DNA of 64,000 nucleotides, taken from the NCBI RefSeq assembly GCF_965201005.1, contig NZ_OZ241747.1, forward strand, positions 572,000 to 635,999, read 5' to 3'. How positions within the stretch are numbered: the first letter of the stretch is position 1; every line of letters starts with the position of its first letter. The stretch is from Mucilaginibacter sp. (lineage in GTDB: Bacteria; Bacteroidota; Bacteroidia; Sphingobacteriales; Sphingobacteriaceae). The translations under genes were made by a program, and so were the position numbers. The notes beneath the pieces were generated by a model. That model had not been told where the DNA came from. It worked only from the letters and a program-made list of their open reading frames with translations, and made no database searches. Of this stretch, positions 425 through 62,375 are shown piece after piece.

Positions 425-540
425 ATGCTTCTTTTACGGTATAAAATCGGGCAGGTTCAAGCAGGGGCAGGTTCAAGCAGTCGGAAAGCATAACCGTTTA
501 TCCGGCACAAGGTTTATTTTATGCCGATAAAAGAAGCACC
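425..540. repeat. ATGCTTCTTTTA-family palindromic element (L...R pair, 116 bp)
   Basis: Left arm is ATGCTTCTTTTACGGTATAAAATCGGG (425-451). Right arm is TTATTTTATGCCGATAAAAGAAGCAC (515-540) and is its reverse complement apart from a few positions. The interior holds a tandem duplication of GCAGGTTCAAGCAG (451-464 and 467-480). Confidence 0.85.
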
Positions 541-543
541 ACT

Positions 544-825
544 TTAATCCACAGAAACGGTCAGTCCTTCCTGCTGCAAAATTTTGCGGTAAACTTCCAC
601 CTCGGTAAAAGAACCTTCCAAAATGGCGCATTTGCCTTTGGTGTGCACTTCCCAGGCAATTTTTTCGGCCTGGGCATCGTTGTAGTCCAAATATTTAACC
701 AGGCAATAAATCACATGCTCAAAAGAGTTGACCTCGTCGTTCCACAAAATCAGGCGGTGGCTTTCTTTCAAACCGGCCAGCAACTCCTCCAGCGTGAAGC
801 TTTCCTCTTTAACCTCTGTTGACAT
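544..825 (-). CDS. clpS: ATP-dependent Clp protease adaptor ClpS
   Basis: 93-aa ORF with the ClpS core ...LILWNDEVNSFEHVIYCLVKYL...AEKIAWEVHTKGKCAILEGSFTEVEVY... Confidence 0.9.
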   Translation of the reverse strand: MSTEVKEESFTLEELLAGLKESHRLILWNDEVNSFEHVIYCLVKYLDYNDAQAEKIAWEVHTKGKCAILEGSFTEVEVYRKILQQEGLTVSVD

Positions 826-928
826 AGCGCAAATTTAATAAAAATTAAAACCTGATATTTAGCAAAAATCAGATAAACCCCGGTTGTTTAAAATTGTCTC
901 TAAACTGAAAAATTATATTTAACAAAAA

Positions 929-1753
929 ATGAAAACTGCTTCTGTTTTATGGTTGATGGCCGGCTGTTTCGGCAGTGTTTTTACGGCCGGTGCACAATCA
1001 AAATCCATTAAAAACCTCAAAAAGTCAAACCAAAATATTGTGGTTGACGGCCAGTTGAAAGATTGGGGCGATAGTCTGGATTATTATAACCCGGGAAAAA
1101 AGCTGCATTACGGGCTGGCCGAAAACCAGGAGAACCTGTATTTTGCGATCCGGATAGAAGACCGCGGGCAGCAGGAGCAGGCCATGCGCAACGGCATTAC
1201 GCTGGCTTTTAACCCCGAAGGAAAAAAGAAGGAAACGTACAGTTTAACTTTTCCTTCGCCCGATCAGGACGAGAACAGCCTGTTTATCATGCCAAAAGCC
1301 GATCATGCCATTACCGAACAGCAATTAAAGCAGGAAGACCTGGAAGAGCACCGCAAAGCCGATTTGCTGAAACTGCGCGATATCCGGGTTAAAGGTTTCC
1401 CCGATGTGGAAACAGACCACATCACCACCGCCAATACTTATGGCATAAAAACAGTATTGCAGTTTGATGATGGCGGCGCACTGGTGTATGAAGCGGCGAT
1501 TCCGGTAAAAATGCTGCACTCGGATCTTACCAGCAAACCCTGGGTTTTTGATATCAGGATCAACAGTTTTAATCCCAATAGTAACAAAGACGGCTTAAAA
1601 CCACCCGGTGAAAATGGCGGCATGAACGGCGGCGGAATGCGTGGCGGCGGTATGCGCGGCGGCCGGGGCGGGATAGGCAATATCGGAAACCCTTCCGATG
1701 GGCAGGGCAATGCCGGTAAAGCAGTGGAGATCAGGGATAAATTTGTGTGGTAA
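929..1753 (+). CDS. secreted hypothetical protein with a Gly/Met/Arg-rich C-terminus
   Basis: Has an N-terminal signal peptide (MKTASVLWLMAGCFGSVFTAGAQ) and a low-complexity tail GGMNGGGMRGGGMRGGRGG. The TAA stop lies inside a repeat arm (GGTAAAAGAAGCAT). Confidence 0.6.
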   Translation: MKTASVLWLMAGCFGSVFTAGAQSKSIKNLKKSNQNIVVDGQLKDWGDSLDYYNPGKKLHYGLAENQENLYFAIRIEDRGQQEQAMRNGITLAFNPEGKKKETYSLTFPSPDQDENSLFIMPKADHAITEQQLKQEDLEEHRKADLLKLRDIRVKGFPDVETDHITTANTYGIKTVLQFDDGGALVYEAAIPVKMLHSDLTSKPWVFDIRINSFNPNSNKDGLKPPGENGGMNGGGMRGGGMRGGRGGIGNIGNPSDGQGNAGKAVEIRDKFVW

Positions 1754-2000
1754 AAGAAGCATCAGCTTAAACTTGACGAAATTATTTTTGCGCTCGAAAA
1801 AGGCAATAATAAAAGGCTTGGAATAGAAAAATTAACTGAAGAAGAGCTTGATGTGCTAAAAGAAGAATATAATCTGGAGGAAGAATTTGAAAATACTTGT
1901 AGTAAGCAAGTTACATGAACTGATCGTATTGAACCAAGCAGCAAAAAGCCGTTTCATCATCACTTGAAACGGCTTTTTGCTGATGCTTCTTTTACCACCT
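1749..2000. repeat. inverted pair of ATGCTTCTTTTA-family arms (R...L) bracketing a 215-bp AT-rich insert
   Basis: GGTAAAAGAAGCATCAGC (1749-1766) and GCTGATGCTTCTTTTACC (1979-1996) form an exact 18-bp inverted repeat. A degenerate third arm, GTGCTAAAAGAAGAAT, sits at 1851-1866. Confidence 0.85.
1943..1978. terminator. bidirectional rho-independent terminator between convergent genes
   Basis: 13-bp stem AAAAAGCCGTTTC / GAAACGGCTTTTT with a 10-nt loop. The A-run on one side and T-run on the other let it serve 929..1753 (+) and 2006..4720 (-). Confidence 0.75.
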
Positions 2001-2005
2001 AAAAA

Positions 2006-6165: not shown

Positions 6166-6888
6166 ATGAAAAACAAGCAAGTATTCTTCGAGGATTGGGG
6201 CTTAATCGATTACAAAGAAGCCTGGGACAGGCAGGAAGCGATTTTTGCCGCCACCGTAAAACTGAAAACCGAACTGCGCAACCGCGGCGAAAACGATGCT
6301 TCTTTTACAGGCATAAAAACAGTAACGCACAATTATCTGATTTTTTGCGAACACCCGCACGTTTATACGCTGGGCAAAAGCGGCAAAAAAGAACATCTTC
6401 TATTGACCGAAGACCAACTTGCCGAAAAACATGCAGTTTTTTACCCGATCAACCGTGGCGGCGATATTACGTACCACGGGCCGGGGCAGTTGGTGGTTTA
6501 TCCGATTTTAGATTTGGACAACTTTTTTACCGATATCCATTTATATCTGCGCACTTTGGAGGAAGCCGTGATTTTGACTTTGGCTGATTTTGGCATCCCA
6601 GGCGGGCGTTATCCGGGTTATACCGGCGTTTGGCTTGATGCCGATGATCCGCAGAAAGCCCGTAAAATCTGTGCCCTTGGCGTGCGCTGCAGTCGCTGGG
6701 TTACCATGCACGGTTTGGCTTTCAACATCAACCCAAACCTCGGTTATTTTAAAAATATCATCCCCTGCGGGATTGAAGACAAAGCCGTAACCTCAATGGA
6801 GCAGGAACTGGGCAAAAAAGTACCGGTAAAAGAAGCATCAGAAGTTTTGAAACGGCATTTGTACATTTTATTTGGGATGCTGGCATGA
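6166..6888 (+). CDS. lipB: lipoyl(octanoyl) transferase LipB
   Basis: Motifs EHPHVYTLGKSGK, INRGGDITYHGPGQLVVYPILDL and KICALGVR...TMHGLAFNI are present. It contains two repeat-family copies (6295-6326 and 6825-6839). Confidence 0.9.
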   Translation: MKNKQVFFEDWGLIDYKEAWDRQEAIFAATVKLKTELRNRGENDASFTGIKTVTHNYLIFCEHPHVYTLGKSGKKEHLLLTEDQLAEKHAVFYPINRGGDITYHGPGQLVVYPILDLDNFFTDIHLYLRTLEEAVILTLADFGIPGGRYPGYTGVWLDADDPQKARKICALGVRCSRWVTMHGLAFNINPNLGYFKNIIPCGIEDKAVTSMEQELGKKVPVKEASEVLKRHLYILFGMLA

Positions 6889-8679: not shown

Positions 8680-10398
8680 ATGAACACTGAATTACTTGGA
8701 ATCATTGCATCCTTTCTCATCACACTGATTATTGCCGTTCCGTTGGGCAAATACCTGGCAAAAATGTTTGCCGGTGAAAAGGTTTGGACTGATTTTATGA
8801 AACCACTCGAAAATGGTTTGTTCAAAATTTCCGGCATCAACCCGGGCGAGCCAATGAACTGGAAACAGTTTCTGAAAGCCATGATGACCATCAATATTTT
8901 ATGGCTGGTTTACGGCTTTTTTGTGTTGATGAACCAGGATAAACTACCGCTAAACCCGGACGGCAATCCCGGCATGTCGGCAGATTTGGCTTTTAACACC
9001 ATTATCAGCTTCGTGGTAAACTGCAACCTGCAGCATTACTCCGGCGAAAGCGGCGCAACTTATCTCACACAGCATTTCATTTTTATGTTCCTGCATTTTA
9101 CCAGTGCAGCTACCGGTATTGCTGCGGCCGTAGCAGTTTTTAAAGCTTTCCGCGATAAAACTACCACGGATTTGGGCAACTTTTGGAGCTATTTTGTAAA
9201 AACCATTACCCGTTTACTATTGCCGCTTTCTATTGTTATTGCGCTGATTTTGACGTTTAACGGAACGCCCTCAAGTTATGCGGGCAAAGACCGGTTTATA
9301 TCGATGCAAGGCGATACCGTAAATGTTTCCCGCGGACCGGCAGCGCAAATGATCGCTATAAAACATCTTGGCACAAACGGCGGCGGCTGGTTTGGTGCCA
9401 ACTCTGCACATCCGCTCGAAAACCCAAATTACCTGACAAATATGGTCGAAATCGTTTCGCAAATGATTATTCCGATGGCAATGGTTCTGGCTTTTGGCTA
9501 TTTTATCCGCAGGAAAAAATTAAGCCGGATCATTTTTGGCGTAATGATGGCCGGTTTGCTGATGCTTCTTTTACCCGCTATTTTTAGTGAATTGGGTGGA
9601 AATCCATCGATTGCGAAAATGGGCATCAGCCAGAACACCGGCGCAATGGAAGGTAAAGAAGTACGTTTCGGGCCAACCGCAACCGCTTATTGGAGCACGT
9701 TAACTACCATCACGTCAACTGGTTCTGTCAACGGAATGCACGACAGCACCATGCCGCTAACCGGTGCCTGGGAATTATTGGCGATGATGATTAACGCTTT
9801 TTTTGGCGGCTGCGGCGTAGGTATTTTAAATTACCTGATCTACCTGATTATCGCTGTTTTTATTGCCGGATTAATGGTAGGCCGCACACCAGAATTTTTA
9901 GGCCACAAAGTGGAAGCCCGCGAAGTAAAAATTGCCGCTCTGATTACGTTGCTGAGCCCGTTTTTAATTATGGCCGGAACTGCTTTGGCCAGTTATGTTT
10001 TTGTGGCGCACGGCAATGCCAACTGGGCAGTAAAGCCAACGTCCTGGCTCAATAATCCCGGCTTTCATGGCTTTTCGGAAATGCTGTATGAGTTTACTTC
10101 GGCCAATGCCAACAACGGTTCTGGTTTTGAAGGGCTGGGCGATAACAATATCTTCTGGAACGTTTCAACAGGTTTTGTGCTTATCCTCGGCCGCTTCCTG
10201 CCAATCATCGGCCCGGTGGCCATTGCAGGTTTACTGGCACAAAAGAAGTATGTGCCCGAATCTGCCGGAACGCTTAAAATTGATACCGTAACCTTCGGCG
10301 TTATAACGTTTGCCGTTATTATGGTTTTAAATGCCTTGTCGTATTTCCCTGCACTGGCTTTAGGCCCGCTGGCAGAGTATTTCTCTATGCCTAAATAA
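8680..10398 (+). CDS. kdpA: potassium-transporting ATPase subunit A
   Basis: 572-aa polytopic protein with KdpA signatures (NLQHYSGES, LGTNGGG, selectivity-filter-like repeats) in the operon position. Confidence 0.95.
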   Translation: MNTELLGIIASFLITLIIAVPLGKYLAKMFAGEKVWTDFMKPLENGLFKISGINPGEPMNWKQFLKAMMTINILWLVYGFFVLMNQDKLPLNPDGNPGMSADLAFNTIISFVVNCNLQHYSGESGATYLTQHFIFMFLHFTSAATGIAAAVAVFKAFRDKTTTDLGNFWSYFVKTITRLLLPLSIVIALILTFNGTPSSYAGKDRFISMQGDTVNVSRGPAAQMIAIKHLGTNGGGWFGANSAHPLENPNYLTNMVEIVSQMIIPMAMVLAFGYFIRRKKLSRIIFGVMMAGLLMLLLPAIFSELGGNPSIAKMGISQNTGAMEGKEVRFGPTATAYWSTLTTITSTGSVNGMHDSTMPLTGAWELLAMMINAFFGGCGVGILNYLIYLIIAVFIAGLMVGRTPEFLGHKVEAREVKIAALITLLSPFLIMAGTALASYVFVAHGNANWAVKPTSWLNNPGFHGFSEMLYEFTSANANNGSGFEGLGDNNIFWNVSTGFVLILGRFLPIIGPVAIAGLLAQKKYVPESAGTLKIDTVTFGVITFAVIMVLNALSYFPALALGPLAEYFSMPK

Positions 10399-14207: not shown

Positions 14208-14220
14208 GATAAATGTTATG

Positions 14221-14377
14221 GCCTGTTTAAATGTCGTCTGGTTTTTTGCAAATGCTTCTTTTATCGCCTAAAATTTGGTGTTTTTGTGTGAATTTTCAAT
14301 CAGCAACAAATATAAAAAACCAAATTTACAGGCATAAAAGAAGCATTGCAGTTTCTTCAACAGCAGTTTAAACAGGC
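14221..14377. repeat. full nested palindromic element of the ATGCTTCTTTTA family (157 bp)
   Basis: The outer arms are GCCTGTTTAAA (14221-14231) and TTTAAACAGGC (14367-14377), each 20 nt from the core. The core arms are ATGCTTCTTTTATCGCCTAAAATTTGGTG (from 14252) and CCAAATTTACAGGCATAAAAGAAGCAT (to 14346). The centre is variable. Confidence 0.85.
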
Positions 14378-14390
14378 TTTAAATATACCA

Positions 14391-14419
14391 ATGCTTCTTT
14401 TAGCACCTAAAAACAGTAT
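14391..14419. repeat. compact palindrome (A-type arm + B-type arm) abutting the kdpD-N start codon
   Basis: In ATGCTTCTTTTA-GCACC-TAAAAACAGTAT, the final AT of the element plus G14420 form the ATG start at 14418. Confidence 0.8.
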
Positions 14420-18774: not shown

Positions 18775-19001
18775 GATTAAAAATAGTGTTTTTAATTTGA
18801 TGTTGGTTTATACGGAAAATATTGTTGAACAAACCACGATTGTGGTTGTAAAAACGGTGCGGGAAATTGGCCTAAAAGTTACCGAAAAGCAATATATGTA
18901 AATTGTTAACGGTAAACCTTCAAATATTGTATGTGTAAATTTAATTAAGGTTTTTGAATCGAAAGCCAATTGCTGTTTGGGTTTTTTGCGGATTTATTTC
19001 T

Positions 19002-19092
19002 ATGCTTCTTTTATCGCCTAAAAAACTGTGAAGACAGGTTTGCTGCTTTAGATAAATACAAACCACCAAATTTATAGTGCTAAAAGAAGCAT
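19002..19092. repeat. ATGCTTCTTTTA-family palindromic element (L...R, 91 bp)
   Basis: The arms are ATGCTTCTTTTATCGCCTAAAAAACTG... and ...AAACCACCAAATTTATAGTGCTAAAAGAAGCAT. Degenerate outer arms sit at about 18970 and about 19108. Confidence 0.85.
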
Positions 19093-19379
19093 CAGGGTTT
19101 TAAAACAAAGCTAAACCAGCTATATAATGAGTAAAGTTTTTCCTATATATTTTAATTGGGGTTTACAATAAAGAAAACAACAGGATTGGACCTTCTATAA
19201 CCAACCATTCAAAAATCTTAGTTTTCAACTGGTTCTTTTTTTCGCATTTAATGTTCATATCAAGCATGGAACAAAAGTAGTGCCTGCATTTTTCTAAATT
19301 GTCATATCTATATAAGTTTAAACATTTAATCGTTTGATTAACATAAAAATAATAATTTTTTAACAATTACATTCAGCAG

Positions 19380-22049: not shown

Positions 22050-23825
22050 TCAGTTTATTTTTTTCTCTATTTCTGTTAGTTGGGCTGCAAAGTAAACGCT
22101 TTTTTCCGGAAATTTCAACAGCAGCTTTTTATAAGTATCTAAGGCTTTGTGGTAAAGCATTTGGTCCAAGTAAACTTTTGCCAGCGTTTCCGTCACCAAA
22201 ATATCTGCATCTTCCGAACTCTTTTTAGCCTTGTTTTCTGTGTCCAACTTATCCATACTTGGCGGGTGGATGTGCGGTTCTTCAATAATAAAACGTTCAA
22301 TCAGCTGCTTCTCCTTCTTTTTAACTGGCAATTCTTCTATCGGCGGCAACACGTTTTCGGGCACTTTCAGCGGTGCTTTGGTATGAAAAATACTTTCTAT
22401 ATATTGCTGGTGCAGCTCCGGGCCAACGCTTAAATCAGTGTTGTTTTGTACATTTTTAGTGTAAGGCTGATAGTTCCCATCATGTTCTTTGCGCGTTCTG
22501 TCCAGCCACCACATAAACGTGTACGGCATTTTATCATCATGATATTTGGAAACCGTATCTGCTTCATTTTCAGTTTGATAATCCGTTTTTATAGGTTCAG
22601 CCAAAGCTTTTTCTAATGGATCATCACCTTTTTCTATCAATTGTTTTTCAGTTTCAGGCGTTTGGTTTTGCCCGAATTTCTGGTTAAAAGAAAAATAATC
22701 GATCGAAGCAATGTTGCTCAGCATTGCTTTTTCCGCCTCATCGCGGGCATTTAAAGGTGTTTCTTCCGAAGTAATTTCGGGTGTAACTGCAACTTCCGGT
22801 GCTAATGATTCAGGTTCGGATCCGGGAACAATTTGGGGCGATGCTTCTTTTACCACCTCAAATTTGATGTCCTCAATCGCCATGATTTCCTCAAAAACCT
22901 CTTCGTCAATTTCCTGGCCGGCGGGTTTTTGATTAAAGTTTTCTTCGAATGCTAAAATCGTTGGTTCAGGGAAAACAAGTTTTTCATCGTCCTCATTTAC
23001 AAATGTTTGGCTTATGTCTTCTGCCCGGAAATCATTTTCGGCAGCCATTGCTTCCTCCAAATTTTCACCTGTAAAAGAAGCATCAACGTTTTCTGCGGAA
23101 GGGATATCTTCTGTAAAAACCGCTTCCTCGTCCTCAATTTCCGCAGGTTTTGGTTCGATAAAAGCCGCGTCGGTAGTTTCCTGCGGATCAGTTTCTTCCG
23201 ATTTTTCCTGACTATCGGTTCCGGTCAAATTTCCCTCAATAAAAACAGCATCGTTTTCTGCGGAAGGAGCAGCCCCGGCCACATCTGAATCCGCAGTAAC
23301 CACTTCCAGTTCCAAATCAATAAACGCGGCATTGTTGATTTCGTCAGCAGGTATTTCATCCGAAAAGTCCGCTTCCGTTTCAGGTTTTGGGTTGATAAAA
23401 ACAGTATTGGTTTCTTCTTTCGCAGCAACTTCCACCGGATAATTTGCTGCAAAAGCTGCCGGTGCGTCCACCAAATTTTCCTCTGTAAAAACAGTATCAG
23501 TTGTTGTTTTATGATCGGTTTTACTTCCATCAAAACCAACAAAACGATCTGGTTTTGGCGCAACCAGCAATTCCGGCCGGTGGATCAGCCGGAACAAAAC
23601 TTCCCGGTTTGCCGCATAAACTGCCGCCGAACGAAGTGCTTTTTCTGCAATTTCGGCATCTGGCTTTTGCACTGCTTTGGCCAGCAACATCCGGAAAATA
23701 CCGCAGGCCGGATAATTTTGCACCAACGCTTCCAACTGCTGCCGGTGCATTGCGTTTGCCGCCGCCGGATTGGCCAATAGTTGCTGCAAAAATTCGGGGT
23801 TTAACCCGTTTTGTATCTGATCCAC
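22050..23825 (-). CDS. acidic repeat protein with a C-terminal TPR-like helix pair
   Basis: 591 aa. The central Asp/Glu-rich region carries the repeated peptide D-[AT]-[AVS]-F-[TI]-x-[EG]-N-L, encoded by the genome-wide repeat motif. The C-terminus is ...ETLAKVYLDQMLYHKALDTYKKLLLKFPEKSVYFAAQL. Confidence 0.7.
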   Translation of the reverse strand: MDQIQNGLNPEFLQQLLANPAAANAMHRQQLEALVQNYPACGIFRMLLAKAVQKPDAEIAEKALRSAAVYAANREVLFRLIHRPELLVAPKPDRFVGFDGSKTDHKTTTDTVFTEENLVDAPAAFAANYPVEVAAKEETNTVFINPKPETEADFSDEIPADEINNAAFIDLELEVVTADSDVAGAAPSAENDAVFIEGNLTGTDSQEKSEETDPQETTDAAFIEPKPAEIEDEEAVFTEDIPSAENVDASFTGENLEEAMAAENDFRAEDISQTFVNEDDEKLVFPEPTILAFEENFNQKPAGQEIDEEVFEEIMAIEDIKFEVVKEASPQIVPGSEPESLAPEVAVTPEITSEETPLNARDEAEKAMLSNIASIDYFSFNQKFGQNQTPETEKQLIEKGDDPLEKALAEPIKTDYQTENEADTVSKYHDDKMPYTFMWWLDRTRKEHDGNYQPYTKNVQNNTDLSVGPELHQQYIESIFHTKAPLKVPENVLPPIEELPVKKKEKQLIERFIIEEPHIHPPSMDKLDTENKAKKSSEDADILVTETLAKVYLDQMLYHKALDTYKKLLLKFPEKSVYFAAQLTEIEKKIN

Positions 23826-36040: not shown

Positions 36041-36155
36041 CATAAGTTTAATAAAATATGGACAGGTGCCTGTAAAAAAAGTGTTTATTATTATAAATAT
36101 TATTAAATAAACTGTGGTTTAAGGGCCGGGTTAAATTTCTAACGATCAATTTACA

Positions 36156-36249: not shown

Positions 36250-36445
36250 ATAAAAACTTTAAAACGGAATTTGAACACGCCCAAAATATATATGATTTTC
36301 AAAAAAATGCTTATTTATAGTATTTGATAAATCAATATAATCACTATTTTTAACATTTTAAAAACCTGAATAATATTTAATTTGCAGCAGATTTTTTACG
36401 TAACCTAAAAATGACTTTTTTAATATTTTTTCCCGGCTTAGGTTT

Positions 36446-39825: not shown

Positions 39826-40848
39826 TTGCAAAGGATACCATCTACCCCGCCAGAAATCGCGCCGCTCGGCAAATCGGATGAACGCCCTTTTTGGTCTGTG
39901 ATGATCCCTGCCTACAATTGTTCTGTTTTTTTGCCCGATGCGATACAAAGTGTGTTAAGTCAGGACCCGGGCGAAGCCATGATGCAGATAGAGGTTGTGG
40001 ACGATTGCAGCACGGACGCCGATGTAGGGGCATTGGTAAAAAGGCTTGGAAAAGGAAGGGTTTCATATTACAGGCAGGAAAAGAATATGGGCAGCCTGCG
40101 TAATTTTGAAACTTGTATCAACCGCGCCCAGGGCTATCACATTCATTTATTGCATGGGGATGATCGTGTAAAGCCGGGATATTATCAACATATCCAATCA
40201 CTTTTTAAAAAGTATCCCGAAGCCGGTGCTGCGTTTTGCGCCTGGAATAATATAGATGAAGAAAATAATATTTTGCGGCGTTCTGCCATTGAAGTCGGAA
40301 AGCCGGATATTTTGGTTAATTGGTTGCCAAAATTAGCGGAACACACCAGGATTCAATACGTTGCCATTGTTGTAAAGCGGGAAGTTTACGAGAAGTTAGG
40401 CAGCTTTTACGGTGTTACCTACGGCGAAGATTGGGAAATGTGGGCACGTGTGGCCAGGGATTATCCGATAGCTTACACGCCGGAAATTCTTGCCGAATAC
40501 CGCGAACATAAAAGTTCAATTTCGAGCAACAGTTTTCTTACGGGCAAAAATATTCAGGATATTTCTAAAGTAATCCACACCATTAGTGGGTATCTGCCGC
40601 AAAAAGACCAAAAAAAAATCAATCGGCTGGCGCATAAAAACTTTGTTCACTGGTCATTTCAATATACAAAGTATTTATGGAAACAAACCCGGAATGCACG
40701 GCTTGCTTATAATCAGGTAAAAGAAATGCTCAGGGTTTACATCGATTTAAGGCTGTTGATATTGCTGTTCATGTTCGGATTGATGGTTTTGGCAGATTTT
40801 ATTTTTAAATTGTTAAAAAAGTTATACTACAGGATGCGGCTCGTTTGA
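39826..40848 (+). CDS. family-2 glycosyltransferase, paralogue 3 of 4 (with a C-terminal TM segment)
   Basis: Contains PFWSVMIPAYNC, VVDDCSTD, LLHGDD and YGEDWEMW, with the hydrophobic tail LLILLFMFGLMVLADFIF. Only a TTG start is available after the in-frame TAA. Confidence 0.8.
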   Translation: MQRIPSTPPEIAPLGKSDERPFWSVMIPAYNCSVFLPDAIQSVLSQDPGEAMMQIEVVDDCSTDADVGALVKRLGKGRVSYYRQEKNMGSLRNFETCINRAQGYHIHLLHGDDRVKPGYYQHIQSLFKKYPEAGAAFCAWNNIDEENNILRRSAIEVGKPDILVNWLPKLAEHTRIQYVAIVVKREVYEKLGSFYGVTYGEDWEMWARVARDYPIAYTPEILAEYREHKSSISSNSFLTGKNIQDISKVIHTISGYLPQKDQKKINRLAHKNFVHWSFQYTKYLWKQTRNARLAYNQVKEMLRVYIDLRLLILLFMFGLMVLADFIFKLLKKLYYRMRLV

Positions 40849-40872
40849 ACCTGTTTTTTTAAAAGGGATTAC

Positions 40873-40964
40873 ATGCTTCTTTTATCCGGTTAAAATTAGT
40901 GGTTATACTTAGTATTTTTGAAAAGGGCAAAAGTTCACTGTTTTTTGTACAATAAAAGAAGCAT
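40873..40964. repeat. ATGCTTCTTTTA-family palindromic element (L...R, 92 bp)
   Basis: The arms are ATGCTTCTTTTATCCGGTTAAAATTAGTGG... and ...GTACAATAAAAGAAGCAT. Confidence 0.85.
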
Positions 40965-41018
40965 GAAAATATTGAAAGTAAGGTTGATGGCCTGTTTAAA
41001 TTTTATCAAATGGCTTTC

Positions 41019-41101
41019 ATGCTTCTTTTATCACCTAAAATTTGGTGGTTTGCCGATAGTATTAATTACCAAAACAAAATTTACAGGCATAAAAGAAGCA
41101 T
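41019..41101. repeat. ATGCTTCTTTTA-family palindromic element (L...R, 83 bp), near-consensus copy
   Basis: The arms are ATGCTTCTTTTATCACCTAAAATTTGGTGGTTT... and ...AAAATTTACAGGCATAAAAGAAGCAT. An outer arm GCCTGTTTAAA sits at 40990-41000. Confidence 0.9.
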
Positions 41102-41159
41102 ATAAACATCCGGATGAGATTAAAAAAAACGCTTAACTAAAAATTAAACAATAGCAGTT

Positions 41160-44361: not shown

Positions 44362-44425
44362 ACAAGTGGTTTGAGTGTTTTTTAAATTTCTGTTCCTGCC
44401 GAAACTTCATTGAAAAACGCTTCAC

Positions 44426-44499
44426 ATGCTTCTTTTATCACCCTAAATTTGGTCTTTTATATAGATTTTTCAGTAAAATTTATGGCATAAAAGAAGCAT
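44426..44499. repeat. ATGCTTCTTTTA-family palindromic element (L...R, 74 bp)
   Basis: The arms are ATGCTTCTTTTATCACCCTAAATTTGGTC... and ...AAAATTTATGGCATAAAAGAAGCAT. An outer arm TTTAAACAGGC starts exactly 20 nt downstream (44520-44530). Confidence 0.9.
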
Positions 44500-44554
44500 G
44501 GTAAACTTGCCGACAAAGCTTTAAACAGGCTCTTGTTTTCGGAAATGTTGGATG

Positions 44555-45517
44555 CTAATTTTCGCAAATTTCCCAGATCGATTGCTTCACCGGTTTAAAC
44601 TCAAAACCGATTGCCGCTTTTATCTTTCGGTTATCGTAATCCTGCACGCGGCTGGCCGCTTGTGCCGAAATTTTATCAACGCCCATTTTTTTGCCGGTAA
44701 AAACAGTACCGGTTGCCGATGCGCGCCAGGCAATTTCCAGCATCCAGGGTTTGGCTTCGGTTTGCGGCGGTTTTAGGTTAAAGTTTTTGGCAATTTCTGC
44801 AAAGAGGTTTTTATAGTTCCAGTTTTCAGCATTCAAAATAAAGCGTTCGTTGCTGATACCGCTTTCCATCAGCAAAATCATTGTTTTGGCCACATCTTCA
44901 ACGTCCACCAAACCGCAACTGCCGGAAGTATAAAATTTTAAACCGTTGCGCACCGTTTCAAAAATCTGTCCGGTGCCTTCTTTGCCCGCATTTTTACCGA
45001 TGATTAAGGATGGGTTAACAATCACGGCATCCAAACCTTCGGCCATGCCGCGCCAAACTTCCATCTCACTTTCGTATTTTGAAATGGCGTAGGCATTGTC
45101 TTTCGGCGTTTCTTCCAGGTGGTGGTTTTCGTTGATCAGCTCGCCGGGTTTTCCTTCGCCAATGGCCGCAATGGAACTTACATGGAGCAAACGGATGCCA
45201 TTCTCCGTACAAAGATTGACCAAGTTTGCCGTGCCTTCCACATTATTTTGGATCAGTTTTTTTTTGAGCGACGGATCAAACGAAACCAAAGCCGCGCAAT
45301 GATAAACCTGCGTAACGCCCGGCAATGCTTCTTTTAAGGCATTAATTTCGAGCAAATCAGCCTCAACCCAAACAATTTTATGCTGAAAAGGAAGCAGCAT
45401 TTCCGGGATTTTGGAAGATGCGCGTTTGGTGCAATGGATGCTGTTTTTACCACCTAAAATTAGTTGCCGGCAAACTTCGGAACCGAGAAAACCTGTTGCA
45501 CCTGTTACTAAAATCAT
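44555..45517 (-). CDS. NAD-dependent epimerase/dehydratase (extended SDR)
   Basis: Starts MILVTGATGFLGSEV (Rossmann GxxGxxG) and has the catalytic YAISK. It contains three repeat-family copies (44697, 45325, 45438). Confidence 0.85.
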   Translation of the reverse strand: MILVTGATGFLGSEVCRQLILGGKNSIHCTKRASSKIPEMLLPFQHKIVWVEADLLEINALKEALPGVTQVYHCAALVSFDPSLKKKLIQNNVEGTANLVNLCTENGIRLLHVSSIAAIGEGKPGELINENHHLEETPKDNAYAISKYESEMEVWRGMAEGLDAVIVNPSLIIGKNAGKEGTGQIFETVRNGLKFYTSGSCGLVDVEDVAKTMILLMESGISNERFILNAENWNYKNLFAEIAKNFNLKPPQTEAKPWMLEIAWRASATGTVFTGKKMGVDKISAQAASRVQDYDNRKIKAAIGFEFKPVKQSIWEICEN

Positions 45518-50678: not shown

Positions 50679-50746
50679 CAAATTTAGGTTGATAAAAGAA
50701 GCATTGGATATATAATTGATACGATGCTTCTTTTATCAACTATTTT
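50679..50746. terminator. repeat-family hairpin (R...L) acting as a bidirectional terminator between convergent genes
   Basis: GTTGATAAAAGAAGCAT-19 nt-ATGCTTCTTTTATCAAC is a 17-bp stem flanked by T-rich tracts on both strands. It begins 1 nt after the + gene stop, and the last stem base is the first base of the minus-gene stop-codon complement (50740-50742). Confidence 0.75.
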
Positions 50747-51307: not shown

Positions 51308-52581
51308 CAGATCAGGTCAAAACCAATGTCTTTCCTAAATTGCATACCGTCAAAATAAATCCGGGCAGCATCCAAAGTAGCTTGTTGCAAAGCGTTAAAC
51401 ATCGTATCCTGTAAGCTGGTTATGGCCAAAACACGGCCGCCGACTGTTTTAATTTCGCCGTTTTCCAGCTTGGTCCCGGCCTGAAAAACCATGGACCCGC
51501 GCACATTTTCAATCCCTGTTATGGTTCTGTTCTTAAGATATTCGCCGGGATAGCCGCCAGCCACCATCATTACGGTTGCCGCAATTTGATCGGAAATTTT
51601 AAGGTTGATCTGATCCAGATTGCCTGATGCTGTGGCTTGTAAAATTTCTACCAGATCATTCTCAATCCGCGGTAAAACCGATTCCGTTTCCGGGTCGCCC
51701 ATGCGGCAATTATACTCGATTACGTAAGGTTCGCCGCCGCAGTTCATCAAGCCGATAAAAATAAAACCGACATACGGAATATTTGCATTTTGCAAACCCT
51801 GCATGGTTGGTTTTACAATGCGCTCCTCAACTTTGGCCATAAAAGTAGCATCCGCAAATGGCACCGGCGAAACAGAACCCATGCCGCCAGTATTTAAACC
51901 GGTATCGCCCTCGCCAATGCGTTTGTAGTCTTTAGCTTCGGGCAAAATTTTGTAGTTTTTGCCGTCCGTAAGCACAAAAACAGACAATTCTATGCCTTGC
52001 AAAAACTCCTCAACAACAACTTTTTTACTGGCGGCACCAAATTTGGCATCACGCAGCATGGCCGTTAATTCCTGTTGTGCTTCTTCCCAACCGGTGCAGA
52101 TCAAAACGCCTTTTCCCGCGGCCAAACCATCGGCTTTTAACACAATAGGCAAACCATGTGTGGCCAGGTAAGCCAAACCTTCGTCCAGCGTTTCGGGTGT
52201 AAATGTTTTGGAAGCAGCCGTTGGGATGCTGTTTTTAAACATAAATTCTTTGGAAAAATCCTTGCTGCCTTCCAATTGTGCGGCTTGCTTTTGCGGACCG
52301 ATCACAGGAATGTTTTTGAGCGATCCATCCGCCAGGAAAAAATCATGGATGCCGTTTACCAGCGGTTCTTCCGGGCCAACCAAAACCAGATCAATGCTGT
52401 TTTTATGCACTAAATTTTTGATCCCTTCAAAATCATTTACGTTGAGATCAACGTTTTGGCCATAAATACCGGTTCCGGCGTTACCAGGCGCAATAAATAA
52501 TTGATCGCATTTCGGGCTTTGCGATAATTTCCAGGCAAAAGCACTTTCTCTTCCGCCGGACCCGAGAAGCAGGATGTTCAT
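51307..52581 (-). CDS. purD: phosphoribosylamine-glycine ligase
   Basis: Starts MNILLLGSGGRESAFAWKL and contains VLKADGLAAGKGV and an ATP-grasp core. The start is taken at ATG 52581. It contains two B-type repeat copies (52226 and 52394). Confidence 0.9.
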   Translation of the reverse strand: MNILLLGSGGRESAFAWKLSQSPKCDQLFIAPGNAGTGIYGQNVDLNVNDFEGIKNLVHKNSIDLVLVGPEEPLVNGIHDFFLADGSLKNIPVIGPQKQAAQLEGSKDFSKEFMFKNSIPTAASKTFTPETLDEGLAYLATHGLPIVLKADGLAAGKGVLICTGWEEAQQELTAMLRDAKFGAASKKVVVEEFLQGIELSVFVLTDGKNYKILPEAKDYKRIGEGDTGLNTGGMGSVSPVPFADATFMAKVEERIVKPTMQGLQNANIPYVGFIFIGLMNCGGEPYVIEYNCRMGDPETESVLPRIENDLVEILQATASGNLDQINLKISDQIAATVMMVAGGYPGEYLKNRTITGIENVRGSMVFQAGTKLENGEIKTVGGRVLAITSLQDTMFNALQQATLDAARIYFDGMQFRKDIGFDLI

Positions 52582-52726: not shown

Positions 52727-55700
52727 ATGTTGGGATTTATCAGTAAGCTTTTCGGTAATAAATCGGAGCGGGACGTTAAAGGCGTGCAGCCTTTGGTAGA
52801 AAAAATAAAGGCAGAATTTGCCAAGCTGGAGCAGATCAGTAATGATGAGTTGCGCGCAAAAACCATCGATTTCAAAGCCCGGATCAGTGCAGGCTTAGAA
52901 AAAACCGATGCCGAAATCAAAGCCGCAAAAGAGGAAGCAGAAAACGATTCTTCTATCGAAGTAAACCGCAAAGTGGAACTTTACGGTGAAATTGATAAGC
53001 TGGAAAAAGACCGCAACAAAGAGCTTGAAGTTATTTTGATGGAGATTTTGCCGGAAGCTTTTGCCGTGGTAAAAGAAACAGCGCGCCGCCTGGCCAATAA
53101 TAAAACGCTGGAAGTTACGGCCACAGATTTCGATCGGGAACTGGCAGCTCATAAAAAGAACGTTTTGATTTCGGGCGATAAAGCCATTCACCACAACTCC
53201 TGGCTGGCTGCCGGAAACGAAGTAACGTGGAACATGGTACATTATGATGTGCAGCTGATTGGCGGTATCGTTTTGCACGAAGGAAAAATTGCCGAAATGG
53301 CAACAGGTGAAGGTAAAACGCTGGTGGCAACATTACCTGCTTACCTGAATGCCCTGGCCGGGCAAGGCGTGCACATCGTTACCGTGAATGATTATCTGGC
53401 CCGTCGGGACAGTGAATGGATGGGCCCATTGTATGAGTTTCATGGCTTGTCGGTAGATTGTATAGATCGCCATGAGCCAAACTCCGAAGAACGCAGAAAT
53501 GCTTATTTAGCAGATATTACCTTTGGCACCAACAACGAATTTGGTTTTGATTACCTGCGTGACAACATGACACGCAGCCCTGAAGAACTGGTACAGCGCA
53601 AACTGCATTACGCGATGGTGGATGAGGTGGATTCGGTTTTAATTGATGACGCCCGTACGCCGCTGATAATTTCTGGGCCGGTTCCGCGTGGTGATGAGCA
53701 TGAGTTTTATGATTTGAAACCACGTATTGAACGTTTGGTAAACGTACAGAAAGCGTACATAACCACCAAGCTGAATGAAGCCAAAAAGCAAATTGCGGAA
53801 GGAAAATCCGGTGTGGATGAAGGCGGTTTGGCATTGTTGCGGGCACATCGCGGTTTACCAAAAAACAAAGCTTTGATCAAGTTTTTGAGCGAGCAGAACA
53901 TCAAACCGGTGCTCAACAAAACCGAAAACTATTACATGCAGGATCAGAATAAAGAAATGCCCAAAGTGGATGAGGAGCTTTATTTTGTAATTGATGAAAA
54001 AAACAACTCGGTAGAACTGACCGAAAAAGGGATTGAACTGATCACCACTTCCGGTGAAGATCCGCACTTTTTTGTAATGCCGGACGTGGGTACGGAAGTT
54101 GCCGAAATTGAAAAATCAAGTTTTTCTGCAGAAGAAAAAGTAGCTAAAAAAGATGAGTTGATGCGCGATTTTTCCATCAAATCAGAACGTATCCATTCTG
54201 TAAACCAGTTGCTTAAAGCTTATACTTTGTTTGAGCGCGATACCGAATACATTTTGGATGATGGAAAAGTAAAGATCGTGGATGAGCAAACCGGCCGTGT
54301 TTTAGATGGCCGTCGTTATTCTGATGGTTTGCACCAGGCTATTGAAGCCAAAGAAAATGTGAAGGTGGAAGATGCCTCGCAAACTTTTGCAACAGTTACG
54401 CTGCAAAACTATTTTAGAATGTATCACAAATTGTGCGGTATGACGGGTACAGCAGTTACCGAAGCCGGTGAATTCTGGGAAATATACAAGCTGGACGTGG
54501 TAGAAATACCGACCAATACACCTGCAAGCCGTGCTGATCGTCAGGATTTGGTTTACCGGACCATGCGCGAAAAATACAATGCCGTTGCCGATGAAATTGT
54601 AACGTTAACGCAAGCTGGCCGACCGGTTTTGGTGGGTACAACTTCCGTAGAAATATCTGAATTATTAAGCCGGATGTTGAAATTGCGTGGCATTAAACAT
54701 AACGTTTTGAACGCCAAAATGCACCAGAAAGAAGCGGATATTGTTGCTGAAGCCGGTAAAACCGGAACCGTAACCATTGCCACCAATATGGCTGGCCGTG
54801 GTACAGATATTAAGCTGGGCGAAGGAGTAAAAGATGCCGGTGGTTTGGCCATTGTGGGCACAGAACGCCATGAATCCCGCCGGGTTGACCGGCAGTTGCG
54901 CGGTCGTTCCGGTCGTCAGGGTGATCCGGGTTCTTCGCAGTTTTTCGTTTCGCTGGAAGATGATCTGATGCGTTTGTTCGGTTCCGAACGGATTTCGGGA
55001 CTGATGGTAAAAATGGGCATTGAGGATGGTGAAGTAATCCAGCATTCCATGATCACCAAATCTATCGAACGCGCACAGAAAAAAGTAGAAGAGAACAACT
55101 TTGGCATCCGTAAACGTTTGCTGGAGTATGATGACGTGATGAACTCGCAGCGTACCGTTATCTACACGCGCCGTAAAAATGCGTTGTTTGGCGAACGGCT
55201 GGATGTTGATTTGAACAATACCATTTTTGATGTAACAGAAGATGTGGTAACCGAGTTTAAAGACGCCAACAACTATGAAGGTTTTCAGTTGGAGATGATC
55301 CGTTTGTTTTCAGTTGATACAGCAATTACAGCCGAAGATTTTACCGCTAAAAACAGTATGGCATTGGTTGAAACGGCTTTCCACGAGATTACGGATTTTT
55401 ATAAACGCAAATCAGAGGCGATTGCCAAACAGGCTTATCCAGTTTTGAAAGATGTTTATGATACGCGCGGCAACATGATCGAAAACATTATTGTGCCTTT
55501 TACAGATGGTGTTCATGGCATTCAAGTTGCTGTCCCGTTGCAAAAAGCAGTGGAAAACAATGGTCAGGAAGTATTGAAATCCTTCGAGAAAAACGTGGTT
55601 TTGACCTTTATTGATGATGCCTGGAAAGAACATTTGCGCGAAATGGACGAGCTGAAGCAATCAGTACAAAACGCCGTTTACGAGCAGAAAGACCCGTTGC

Positions 55701-56045: not shown

Positions 56046-56519
56046 ATGACACACCAAAATTTATACCCTAAAAGAAGCATCCGGGCAACACCAGTCTGGA
56101 TGCTTCTTTTATCAATGTTTTTTCTGACTGTAAAATCCTCCGCACAAATACGCGGGGAAGTTGAGGTAATCAAAGACCCGCGGATTGATTCGATCATTGC
56201 ACACCGTTTAATCGATATAAAATCCCCGTTAGGAAAAATCGGAAACAGTTCTGGTTATGGCTATCGTGTACAGTTTTTCATCAGCCCAAAACGCAATGAA
56301 ATTTATGCAAAACAGGCTGCTTTTAATGAGCTTTATCCTGATTTGCGCACCTATATTATTTATCGCGAACCTAATTACAAGCTCAAAGCCGGTGATTTCA
56401 GGACTCGGTTGGAAGCACAAAAACTGATGCGCGATATCCGGCCGCAGTTTCCAACGTTGTTTTTGCTTTCCGAAAAAATCAATCTACCTAAACCCGACGC
56501 TGCTGATGCTAAAAACTAA
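56046..56519 (+). CDS. SPOR-domain protein (start ambiguous: ATG 56046 or ATG 56100)
   Basis: The C-terminal SPOR-like region is GYGYRVQFF...YKLKAGDFRTRLEAQKLM. The N-terminus MTHQNLYPKRSIRATPVWMLLLSMFFLTVKSSAQ is encoded by the palindrome. Confidence 0.65.
   Translation: MTHQNLYPKRSIRATPVWMLLLSMFFLTVKSSAQIRGEVEVIKDPRIDSIIAHRLIDIKSPLGKIGNSSGYGYRVQFFISPKRNEIYAKQAAFNELYPDLRTYIIYREPNYKLKAGDFRTRLEAQKLMRDIRPQFPTLFLLSEKINLPKPDAADAKN
56054..56113. repeat. repeat-family hairpin (R...L) between secA and the SPOR gene, inside the SPOR ORF's 5' end
   Basis: CCAAAATTTATACCCTAAAAGAAGCATCC-15 nt-GGATGCTTCTTTTATC has a 14-bp stem. Confidence 0.85.
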
Positions 56520-57693: not shown

Positions 57694-57720
57694 GATACTG
57701 TTTTTATCGGTATAAATTTG
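57694..57720. repeat. solo B-type arm directly after the M20 stop
   Basis: The sequence is GATACTGTTTTTATCGGTATAAATTTG. Confidence 0.8.
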
Positions 57721-57819
57721 TCCCGTCGTTTTATCTTTTTTATGGAAGGAAGAAACCCTCATTAAATTTCAACATCTAAATAAAATTTCCCCCTTTGCAT
57801 AAAGATCAAAAATTAAAAT

Positions 57820-59987: not shown

Positions 59988-60506
59988 TCAGGTTAAAGTT
60001 TTTTCCATCAGCCAATCACATTGCTTATCATTCCCAAGTTTAAAATCCATTTCCCCGGTTTTTACAAATCCCCAATCCAAATAAAAGTTGATTGCTTTTT
60101 GGTTGTGTTCCCAAACGCCCAGCCATAGTTTTTCAGCTTGATTTTTTCGGGAGAAATCAATGGCAAATTGCATCAAACCTGCACCAACTTTTTGATTATG
60201 ATAAAGTTTGGAAACATACAATCTTGAAAGTTCTGCTGATTTTATGCCGGTAAAAGAAGCATCCGTCAATATCAGTTTCATACAACCAACGGGCATACTG
60301 TTTTTAGTGGCATAAAAACAGTATGTGTTTAGATCAGCTAATTCTTGTTGAATCTTTTCAATTGCAAAACTCTCTTCCAGATACAATTTCATATCTTCTG
60401 CAGAATTAGACTCAGCAAAAGTTTCTTTAAATAAAGCTGCACCAAACTTTGCAAATCCGACAGCTTCTTCGATAGTTACTTGGCGGATGGAAACTTCCGG
60501 ATTCAT
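59988..60506 (-). CDS. GNAT-family N-acetyltransferase
   Basis: Has an acetyl-CoA-binding pattern (RLYVSKLYHNQKVGAGLMQ). It contains two compact repeat palindromes (60234-60262 and 60294-60325). Confidence 0.8.
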   Translation of the reverse strand: MNPEVSIRQVTIEEAVGFAKFGAALFKETFAESNSAEDMKLYLEESFAIEKIQQELADLNTYCFYATKNSMPVGCMKLILTDASFTGIKSAELSRLYVSKLYHNQKVGAGLMQFAIDFSRKNQAEKLWLGVWEHNQKAINFYLDWGFVKTGEMDFKLGNDKQCDWLMEKTLT

Positions 60507-60518
60507 AGGTTATTTATT

Positions 60519-60624
60519 AACACACCCCTAACCCCTCTCAAGAGGGGAAGCATAGTTTAATACCTTGTAGTTTATAGAGGTCTGCAAGCGATTTCCCCCT
60601 CTTGAGAGGGGTTAGGGGTGTGTT
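60519..60624. repeat. unrelated G/C-tract palindrome: a 29-bp perfect inverted repeat separated by 48 bp
   Basis: AACACACCCCTAACCCCTCTCAAGAGGGG (60519-60547) and CCCCTCTTGAGAGGGGTTAGGGGTGTGTT (60596-60624). Each arm also contains its own 7-bp palindrome, CCCCTCT-CA-AGAGGGG. Confidence 0.9.
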
Positions 60625-60645
60625 GTTTATGCGTTTCGATTCAAC

Positions 60646-62094
60646 CTAAAACGCTGCATTTTTTGGAAAACGCGGGAAAGGGATCACGTCGCGGATGTTG
60701 CCCATTCCTGTTACAAATTGTACCAATCGCTCAAAACCTAAACCAAAACCTGCGTGTTCGCAGGCACCAAAACGGCGCGTGTCCAAATACCAATCCAGTT
60801 CTTCTTTCGGGATATTCATCTCATCCATGCGTTGTTCCAGCTTGTCCAAACGTTCTTCCCGCTGTGATCCGCCAACCATTTCGCCGATTCCGGGAAATAA
60901 AATATCCATTGCCCGAACGGTTTTTCGCCCTTCTGCGTCCGGTTCGTTCTGGCGCATATAAAAAGCTTTGATCGCGGCCGGATAATCCGTTAAAATCACT
61001 GGTTTTTTAAAGTGTTTTTCAACTAAATAACGCTCATGTTCTGATTGCAGATCCGCGCCCCAGCCTTCAATTAAATATGTAAATTTCTTCTTTTTGTTTT
61101 GAGAAGAATTTTTGAGGATTTCAATTGCTTCGGTATAAGTCAGCCGTTCAAAATCGTTGTCCAAACAAAATTGCAGCTTCTCCAGCAAAGTCATTTCCGA
61201 GCGTTCCTGCTGCGGTTTTTGCTTTTCTTCTTCGGCTAAACGTTGCGCTAAAAATTCCAGGTCGTCAGTATTTTTTTCCAATGCTTCTTTTATCACCTGT
61301 TTTAGCAATTCTTCGGCTAAATCAGCATTATCGTCCAAATTATAAAAAGCCATTTCCGGCTCGATCATCCAAAATTCTGCCAAATGTCGCGTGGTGTTAG
61401 AATTTTCTGCACGGAAAGTTGGACCGAAAGTATAAATATCACTCAAAGCCATTGCGCCCAATTCGCCTTCCAACTGACCGGAAACCGTTAAGTTAGTTGC
61501 TTTTCCGAAGAAATCTGCTGTGAAATCAATTTCTCCTTCTGCTGTTTTCGGCACATTATTTAAGTCGAAATTAGTCACGTGGAACGTCTCGCCTGCGCCT
61601 TCTGCATCCGAAGCGGTAATAATTGGCGTGTTCAAATACACAAATCCGCGCTCCTGGAAAAACTGGTGCACAGCAAAAGCCAAGGTATTTCTCACCCTAA
61701 AAACAGCACCGAAAGTATTGGTACGAAAACGTAAATGCGCAATTTCACGCAGAAATTCCAAGCTGTGTTTTTTGGGCTGAAGCGGATATTTTTCCGGATC
61801 AGAATCGCCCAGAATTTCGATTGATGCTGCTTTTAGCTCTACTTTTTGGCCTTTTCCCAACGAAGCAACAACTTGTCCGGTTACGCTGATGGCCGCGCCG
61901 GTTGTTATGCTTTTTAAAATTGCCGGATCGGTATTTTCAAAATCAACAACAATTTGCAAATTTAGGTTGGTTGAGCCATCATTTAAAGCAATAAACTGGT
62001 TGTTGCGGAAAGTGCGCACCCAGCCTTTTACGGTAGTTTCAAATCCGGTTTCCGCGCTTTGCAAAAGCGATTTGATTTTTGTTCGCTGCCTCAT
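60646..62094 (-). CDS. asnS: asparagine-tRNA ligase
   Basis: Class IIb pattern with [21 protein letters not shown] and GSQREE. The C-terminus is [27 protein letters not shown]. The start is taken at ATG 62094. Confidence 0.92.
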
Positions 62095-62282
62095 ATCAAT
62101 AAAGTATTTTTTGGAGCCGCGAAAATACAATTATTTAAGCACTGCCGGATTTTAAGGATTGTATTTTGAAAAACTGCAAAACTTAATCCTGATAAACAGA
62201 AAGTTTTTGGCAGGTTCAGTCATTTGCAACCAGCTTTGGTTAAAGTTAATGTTTATTTAACTTTGATTTAAAGCGTATTTTA

Positions 62283-62375
62283 ATGCTTCTTTTATCACCT
62301 AAAATTTAGTGGTTTTGCGTTTTTTAAATCGGGAATGATTGTAAAAAAGCAAAATTCAGGTGATAAAAGAAGCAT
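62283..62375. repeat. ATGCTTCTTTTA-family palindromic element (L...R, 93 bp)
   Basis: The arms are ATGCTTCTTTTATCACCTAAAATTTAGTGGTTTT... and ...AAAATTCAGGTGATAAAAGAAGCAT. Confidence 0.9.

Follow-up and report, generated by a model that had tools for sequence, protein, structure and literature searches.

A hyper-abundant two-form DNA word in one Mucilaginibacter clade, possibly maintained like an uptake sequence

Why should one 12-nucleotide word recur about once per kilobase along a bacterial chromosome, within genes as well as between them? The question is raised by a 64-kb stretch of DNA from Mucilaginibacter sp. (contig NZ_OZ241747.1, positions 572,000 to 635,999; hereafter the window, from the first letter of which coordinates are counted), in which a first-pass annotation had noticed the word ATGCTTCTTTTA (form A) and a sister word, AT[GA]CTGTTTTTA (form B). 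Form A or its reverse complement is present in 42 exact copies (23 on the plus strand, 19 on the minus strand), where dinucleotide shuffles give 0.02 on average and 1 at most, and form B in 26 exact copies against 0.07 expected. With up to one mismatch to either form, 91 sites were counted, in excess of Markov-type controls (order-3 simulations: mean 4.1, maximum 7). The tallies of the first pass proved sound: every one of the 42 starts listed for its approximately 40 form-A copies is an exact match, its 25 examples of form B were all recovered together with one more at 1446, and its 85-90 half-sites including single-mismatch copies compare with our 91. The reading that we rank first, with a probability of roughly 40%, is a word akin to the uptake signal sequences (USS) of Pasteurellaceae and the DNA uptake sequences (DUS) of Neisseriaceae, which would be held in place by a drive at the DNA level such as sequence-biased DNA uptake.

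The word has a sharply defined form. A position matrix of the 91 sites yields the asymmetric 12-nt core consensus AT[G>A]CT[TC|GT]TTTTA as part of a bipartite unit of ~28 nt, in which a C-rich spacer, yCrCC, and an AT-rich tail near TAAAATTTGG come after the 12-mer; a conserved context beyond the 12-mer, GATGCTTCTTTTATCACCTAAAATTTGGTGG, had already been proposed and matches this matrix. In 149 kb of clade DNA picked motif-blind, positions 3, 4, 9 and 10 of the 12-mer are invariant and core positions 5-6 are nearly always TC or GT (TC 95, GT 49, GC 7, TT 4). Perfect form-A copies (n = 79) compare there with 52 single-mismatch copies altogether.

Is the word a peculiarity of this window or the property of a larger group? 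We scanned eight-kb stretches with the 22-mer ATGCTTCTTTTATCACCTAAAA as seed and matched at least 103 of them, in 11 species genomes, so that copies are not confined to the window. All matches listed belong to M. arboris HMF7410 or to ten metagenome-assembled genomes (MAGs) of Mucilaginibacter/Sphingobacteriaceae, lichen being the source of several. The word is thus carried by at least 11 related genomes; within the clade, 12 genomes contain it. Without the seeded copies, form A still reaches 0.2-0.7 copies per kb in the seed-matched loci. The density is 0.6-1.2 exact sites per kb in the motif-blind DNA and 0.92 per kb in clade DNA overall (880 exact sites in 951,693 bp). The word-bearing clade is separated by a gap in PurD identity, which is 86-100% within it and at most 78% to all other Mucilaginibacter. 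In 21 kb of syntenic DNA from each of two outgroup Mucilaginibacter species (strains PPCGB 2223 and HMF5004), there are 0 exact copies and no other hyper-abundant 12-mer. Presence in the clade and absence from the outgroups show the word to be real, genome-wide and common to one clade, of which it is an innovation. The suspicion that it might be technical in origin (an adapter, a chimera or a spike-in) or a mere effect of composition or codon usage is thereby refuted: the word occurs in one isolate genome and in MAGs of several independent projects, it sits in frame and at orthologous positions within conserved genes, shuffles and order-3 Markov models produce merely 0.02-4 copies, and the outgroup DNA with zero copies is of similar composition.

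How do such copies arise, and what keeps them? Between species pairs that are 72-95% identical, the ortholog has an identical word in 46 of 64 cases, compared with 17% of control 12-mers, and a gap was found in just one of the 64 comparisons. Coding sites (12 of 16 identical, 75%, versus 16.4% of controls; p = 4e-7) and intergenic sites (15 of 25 versus 16.8%; p = 1e-6) behave alike, and words are kept as islands where the spacer around them is only 65% identical. Around purD, the positions of coding words are the same in five or six species of the clade; in both outgroups, all aligned coding sites show at least two mismatches (at least three save in one comparison) or a gap. Within purD, two form-B words with their tails lie antisense to the gene: one at 52226..52253 (+), encoding FKNSIP, is identical in seven clade genomes and has at least three mismatches in both outgroups, and the other at 52394..52421 (+), encoding HKNSI, is clade-specific. 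At the protein level, 25-27 of 28 PurD proteins of the clade have xKNSI at two different sites, encoded by AAA AAC AGC AT, which equals form B antisense, while the corresponding residues in 92 outgroup PurD proteins are R[HN]N and L[AND]N. PurD is 424 aa long in clade and outgroups alike. A form-B word in secA (55348..55359, -) is likewise kept in close relatives and absent from the outgroups, and a form-A word antisense in the gene of a class II aminoacyl-tRNA synthetase (61281..61292, +) reads ATGCTTCTTTTATCAC in the clade and GGGCGTAGCCTATCAG and AAGCGTAGGCAATTAC in the outgroups. Forms A and B also exchange at orthologous positions, as at 56069 and 57695, a behaviour shared with the dialects of uptake sequences; the form-B word 4 nt past the stop codon of an M20 peptidase gene (57695..57722, +) is form A in the orthologous copies of L106 and L107 (L-numbers denote loci of clade genomes other than that of the window).

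An origin by substitution, together with conservation in orthologs, argues that single words were made and have been kept by a force on the DNA sequence itself, and excludes inserted blocks. Rickettsia palindromic elements (RPE) share with the word a location inside protein-coding genes, but they are in-frame insertions that add residues. The coding copies found here show no indels relative to the outgroups and PurD length is unchanged, so that an origin of the RPE type is ruled out. Judging from the alignments, the word has altered protein sequences, PurD being an example.

The placement of the copies was examined relative to the genes of the clade. Strand use is even (334 plus versus 315 minus), with a per-locus skew of 0.345 that fits a binomial (0.308 +/- 0.025), and both orientations are interleaved in every locus, in line with the first-pass description of a short fixed-sequence word on both strands. 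Polar words of the Chi type or of the FtsK-orienting (KOPS) type were considered and are ruled out by this lack of strand polarity. The density rises from 0.31 per kb in open reading frames (ORFs) to 2.8 in divergent, 4.5 in tandem and 8.0 in convergent spacers. The earlier statement of more than one copy per kb in both coding and non-coding DNA therefore stands for spacers (2.8-8.0 per kb) and nearly so overall (~1 per kb), but not for coding DNA. Altogether 246 of the 880 exact sites lie within ORFs and ~72% are intergenic. The 200 coding copies that could be classified by frame (81 sense, 119 antisense) use every open frame, namely five of six; the antisense frame that starts with TAA is closed and holds none, which bears out the earlier remark that copies in CDSs use all three frames, apart from the one shut by its stop codon. 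Peptides encoded by the word include DASF, [IV]KEA, MLLL and xKNSI.

Many copies sit 3-11 nt past stop codons, and in some cases the word itself supplies the stop codon of a gene, either as the TAA of TAAAAGAAGCAT or as the TAG in the tail CCTAAAA; such stops are located at 1751-1753, 2006-2008, 17347-17349, 35447-35449 and 50740-50742. At 1751..1994, for instance, two single words mark the 3' ends of convergent genes: TAAAAGAAGCAT TAA at 1751 stops ORF 929-1753, and ORF 2006-4720 ends on the TAG in the tail of the 1983 copy. As the word spread, it seems to have remodelled the 3' ends of genes. DNA that is likely foreign lacks it, as seen in the insertion sequence (IS) of L107, in viral contigs, where the 22-mer ATGCTTCTTTTATCACCTAAAA is absent, and in the ORFs of a low-GC (39%) cluster at 36470-44361. 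This cluster consists of glycosyltransferase family 2 genes and a Wzt-like ABC transporter; its seven ORFs hold 0 exact sites (~4 would be expected from the density in other ORFs) and its spacers hold nine. It was likely exchanged horizontally. A similar glycosyltransferase cluster with a different spacer layout is found in L106.

What kind of system would produce this pattern? In the reading that we rank first, the ~28-nt unit (AT[G/A]CT[TC|GT]TTTTA, yCrCC, TAAAATTTGG) would be recognised as double-stranded DNA by a sequence-specific protein, and a force on the DNA, not on encoded products, would hold it at about one copy per kb along the chromosome of one lineage. As in Pasteurellaceae with USS and Neisseriaceae with DUS, cells would preferentially take up and then recombine word-bearing fragments, so that mutations creating or restoring the word would be over-transmitted and words would pile up wherever they are tolerated. 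Such places would chiefly be convergent spacers, gene ends, where inverted copies could double as bidirectional terminators, and coding frames that permit the word. A palindromic element of ~168 bp, which carries two words, adds about a quarter of the copies. The step from a drive at the DNA level to uptake is one that we infer by analogy.

The analogy is extensive. Like the word described here, USS have an asymmetric core with a spaced AT-rich tract, occur about once per kb on both strands, include coding copies in tolerant frames that originate by point substitution, are conserved in orthologs and alter peptides, form inverted pairs downstream of genes and come in clade-specific variants. 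They differ in sequence (a 9-bp core with an AT-rich flank) and phylum and have an established uptake bias, which for our word is a prediction; our word is also more intergenic (~72%), has a quarter of its copies in the ~168-bp element and forms compact dyad double sites. DUS (the 12-mer AT-GCCGTCTGAA and its dialects, which are read by the minor pilin ComP) resemble it in their length of 12 nt, their frequency of ~1 per kb, enrichment in spacers, inverted pairs in terminators, dialects that differ at few positions and absence from foreign DNA. In contrast to DUS, the word here has an AT-rich tail, its two forms coexist and swap within one genome and part of its copies belong to a dispersed element; no ComP-like receptor or type IV pilus was identified in a signature screen of ~950 kb with fragmentary coverage. 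HIP1 (highly iterated palindrome 1, GCGATCGC) of cyanobacteria is similarly hyper-abundant in coding and non-coding DNA and is conserved in orthologs beyond expectation, but it is a palindromic octamer, while we are dealing with an asymmetric, tailed 12-mer in two discrete forms. Taken as an analogy, the full set of properties matches that described for USS and DUS, and no one conventional class accounts for all features.

To our knowledge, sequence-biased DNA uptake is established in just two proteobacterial families. We found no description in the literature of an equivalent of this 12-mer or of uptake sequences in Bacteroidota or Mucilaginibacter. In Riemerella columbina, another member of the Bacteroidota, natural competence with a preference for self-DNA has been documented, in a study that detected poly-A-type k-mers only and no discrete word (PMC7965970). 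The more far-reaching proposal, namely that we are looking at the first discrete uptake sequence of the Bacteroidota, a bipartite ~28-nt tag of self-DNA for transformation, with two interchangeable dialects (TC and GT), that rewrote parts of the proteome and was picked up by a small palindromic mobile element, which rides on its uptake bias, in a lineage that partly stems from lichen, is put forward yet more tentatively than the reading on which it builds.

Several observations weigh against uptake. Signatures of pilin, secretin, PilB/T, DprA, ComEA and ComF were absent from ~950 kb of clade loci, which is a weak test given the fragmentary coverage. About 23% of all words are carried by the ~168-bp element, for which we know of no counterpart with fixed spacing (79-83 bp) among USS or DUS, and this geometry points to a transposition-like process for that share of copies. 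Compact palindromic double sites lie within genes (28065 and 60295) and point to a DNA-binding protein that acts as a dimer, a mode in which USS and DUS are not known to be read. The tail resembles the -7 promoter box of Bacteroidota, TAnnTTTG. Finally, HIP1 demonstrates that a hyper-abundant, conserved word without a link to uptake is possible.

Could the word then simply be an array of sites bound by a cellular protein that is specific to the clade, each site being under ordinary purifying selection and none having a role in uptake? Such sites might serve a factor that associates with the nucleoid or organises the chromosome, act as a non-polar signal for recombination or repair, or mark self-DNA for a defence system. 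The sharp specificity and the bipartite build of core and tail are typical of protein recognition, and strand symmetry as well as conservation in both coding and spacer DNA would fit. So would the 10 compact dyad double sites with a spacing of 17-18 bp, some in genes, which suggest a dimer. One is a perfect 30-bp double site at 28065..28094, composed of form B, a 6-nt spacer and the reverse complement of form B, in a 628-aa ORF. A double form-B site in a GNAT acetyltransferase gene (60295..60324) is kept in L106-L109, in which a single form-A word of the GNAT gene (60251..60262, -) is identical too. A third (14391..14419) combines form A(+), a 5-nt spacer and form B(-) directly before the likely start codon of kdpD. 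However, we know of no cellular DNA-binding protein that needs thousands of 12-mer sites in housekeeping genes at the cost of altered amino acids, the preference for convergent spacers suggests placement by tolerance instead of a position-specific function, and no candidate protein was identified. We therefore regard such a protein as a somewhat unlikely explanation and hold on to an uptake-like drive as the better one.

The share of copies in the dispersed element calls for separate treatment. Measured from start to start, pairs of words show a sharp class of ~100 inward-facing pairs at 79-83 bp, besides two minor classes, one of 10 pairs at 17-18 bp and one of 6 pairs at 32-33 bp. The 81-bp class corresponds to a palindromic unit of ~168 bp, which runs from an outer TTAAGAGCCTGTTTAAA-like box over ~20 nt to the word and tail, then through a variable centre of ~30 nt into its mirror image. 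When 90 units were compared in 4005 pairs, 443 gave alignments of 110 nt or more, whose ends fall consistently ~36 nt outside the 12-mers, and the closest copies from different loci share 80-88% identity. Filled and empty orthologous sites were observed in two cases, window 44390-44535 versus L106 and L096 versus L050; neither shows a clean target-site duplication. Alignments of consistent length and presence or absence as a block indicate that the unit is a MITE-like family (miniature inverted-repeat transposable elements), as judged from its sequence. A tRNA gene adjoins the filled/empty site L096:6150-6250 / L050:6590-6690, which hints at insertion of the element next to tRNA genes. The first-pass annotation had described inverted pairs right after genes; such pairs do exist, but most of them are the two arms of this element.

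In the window, the element is represented by units at 14216..14382 (arms 14252(+) and 14335(-), with yCrCC-TAAAATTTGG pointing inward and outer GCCTGTTTAAA boxes at 14221 and 14367), 18966..19128 (arms 19002(+) and 19081(-), upstream of the groEL 3' end), 32958..33121 (arms 32994(+) and 33074(-), after the gene of an FtsX/MacB-type permease), 36120..36285 (arms 36156(+) and 36238(-), whose interior is an inverted relative of the one in the 14252 element) and 62247..62411 (arms 62283(+) and 62364(-), upstream of the class II aminoacyl-tRNA synthetase gene). Two adjacent units at 40837..41137, with arms 40873(+)/40953(-) and 41019(+)/41090(-), share a spacer of the glycosyltransferase cluster. 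A shorter unit at 44390..44535, whose arms 44426(+) and 44488(-) are 62 bp apart, is missing in L106, where the orthologous spacer measures 37 bp.

Is the word, then, primarily the transposase-binding arm of this family, with single copies being decayed or solo arms and abundance reflecting selfish transposition? The sharp spacing, the length-consistent alignments, the block presence or absence and the terminal TTAAGAGCCTGTTTAAA-like inverted boxes all speak for it, and MITEs such as the Correia element of Neisseria likewise have a defined length, terminal inverted boxes and block polymorphism. Unlike in MITEs, the interior of the unit is unconserved and its two internal 28-nt words are near invariant, far better conserved than the element ends or centre and thus than the putative terminal repeats. 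Transposition also leaves the coding copies unexplained, which differ from the outgroups by multiple substitutions without indels, are conserved and fit the reading frame, as well as the single spacer copies, which lack the outer flank of the element and yet are kept at orthologous positions. Neither a target-site duplication nor a cognate transposase was found: no parent IS with the element ends turned up in the ~1 Mb of clade DNA searched, and the ends of the L107 IS are unrelated. A search for 'empty palindromes' by the outer box, as a sign of nested insertion, was uninformative, as the box varies too much to be captured by a regular expression. We conclude that a transposase-centred reading holds for the ~168-bp unit and not for the other copies, and consider it unlikely as an account of the word as a whole, less likely than the cellular DNA-binding protein.

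Repetitive extragenic palindromic sequences (REPs), their hairpin-forming doublets (REPINs) and the REP-associated tyrosine transposases (RAYTs) were considered as well, since they also form inverted doublets of ~100 bp in spacers, prefer 3' ends and reach hundreds to thousands of copies. REPs, however, are confined to spacers and selected as hairpins. The class fails here on the coding copies (246 of 880 in ORFs), on arms that do not covary and on the lack of a cognate RAYT. The two arms of one element are no more alike than arms of different copies (0.51 identical versus 0.52 in shuffled arms; z -1.0), and selection of the palindrome as a hairpin is rejected; arms without covariation imply that pairing is not the selected feature. 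As stated in the first pass, there is no transposase or RAYT gene among the ORFs of the window; we found no competence gene among them either. The sole Y1_Tnp ORF found in the clade DNA is flanked by GGTCGGGATTTGCAATCCCGACC and not by the word. It is an IS200-like, RAYT-like ORF (1580-2125) in L002:1380-2400 of M. arboris (NZ_WPIK01000009.1), beside five copies of GGTCGGGATTTG[CT]AATCCCGACC; this repeat is absent from the window and represents a separate REP/RAYT-type system in the clade.

A different picture emerges for outward-facing pairs, which cluster at 27-31 and 50-52 bp, have predicted folds of -20 to -34 kcal/mol and are flanked by A and U tracts. The pair at 50693..50735 (<- ->) between convergent genes has the shape of a bidirectional terminator, with an A-tract, a GAAGCAT...ATGCTTC stem and a U-tract (dG -27.7 and -21.9 kcal/mol; z -9.8 and -8.9), and its stem is kept in the L021 ortholog by a compensatory change (GAAGCAC...GTGCTTC). 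Another pair of terminator shape lies just 3' of the secA stop codon (56069..56111) and is kept in five clade genomes, the left copy being form B in L106. Such outward-facing pairs are probably bidirectional terminators made of two words, as inferred from their predicted folds. An inward-facing pair with 32-bp spacing (34023..34066) begins 4 nt beyond a gene end.

Could the primary function then lie at the level of RNA or transcription, the word being half of a terminator (stem plus U-tract) or a promoter with a TAnnTTTG-like tail? The folding of the outward pairs with its one compensatory change, the many copies shortly after stop codons and the highest density in convergent spacers would agree with terminators. 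Most copies are single without a partner arm, though, coding copies occur in both orientations, the arms of the palindromic element do not covary, so that sequence and not pairing is the selected feature, and generic terminator and promoter scans gave chance counts. Promoters would be expected to avoid convergent spacers, which are the densest, while divergent ones are the sparsest. The sigma-A promoter of Bacteroidota consists of a -33 element, TTTG, located 19-21 nt upstream of the -7 box TAnnTTTG; the position matrix contains no conserved -33 element upstream of the 12-mer. An Rfam search of the whole window gave no family match. We regard a primary role in transcription as highly improbable.

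USS, DUS and HIP1 are known examples of this type of phenomenon; distinctive here are the two interchangeable cores, the bipartite 28-nt build and the dispersed element of fixed geometry. If an uptake-like drive is at work, this would be an independent, recently evolved case in another phylum, with bearing on the origin of such words and on the Haemophilus reader. With a cultured member (M. arboris HMF7410) and word-free close relatives, the system is experimentally tractable and allows direct tests. Even without uptake, a word that overrides amino acid preferences in PurD, SecA and a tRNA synthetase reflects a strong unexplained selective force. The word can serve as a clade marker and, if uptake is sequence-specific, would likely be needed for efficient genetic manipulation of these bacteria.

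The window itself consists of ordinary chromosomal genes, among them kdpABC, a split kdpD, groEL, secA, secG, lptE, purD, lipB, the class II aminoacyl-tRNA synthetase gene, two sigma-54 activators and the glycosyltransferase/ABC polysaccharide cluster. Further words in these genes include two of form A in lipB (6296(+) and 6827(-), together 6296..6838), one of form A in kdpA (9562..9573, +; in-frame MLLL) and a pair in an NAD-dependent epimerase gene (45325..45449, +), with form A at 45325 and form B at 45438, the latter clade-conserved with G/A at position 2. A 591-aa ORF at 22050-23825, which has no Pfam match, holds five words within 22841..23497, namely form A at 22841(+) and 23072(-) and form B at 23240(-), 23396(-) and 23486(-); its three form-B copies share one frame. 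The gene kdpD is apparently split into an ORF with the KdpD sensor domain (14346-15533) and one for a PAS/HAMP histidine kinase (15530-17287), which overlap by 4 nt.

The secA-purD spacer, 44 bp long in the window (52621-52663), contains an inserted pair of DUF433 and DUF5615 genes in L107:9384-9948 and L108:9387-9951. In L109, an insertion in the same spacer (L109:8887-9633) carries a small ORF with a TfoX_N domain, which is a hint only; TfoX/Sxy proteins regulate competence in Haemophilus and Vibrio. Three of the MAGs in GenBank (JBPBQV, JBPBQN and JBPBPL) are titled 'Janthinobacterium lividum'; their records include L007-L009, L012, L016, L021, L026 and L029 as well as L054, L055, L065, L069 and L097-L099. 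Since L021 is 86% identical to the Mucilaginibacter window across 7.1 kb of secA-purD synteny, these three appear to be mislabelled bins.

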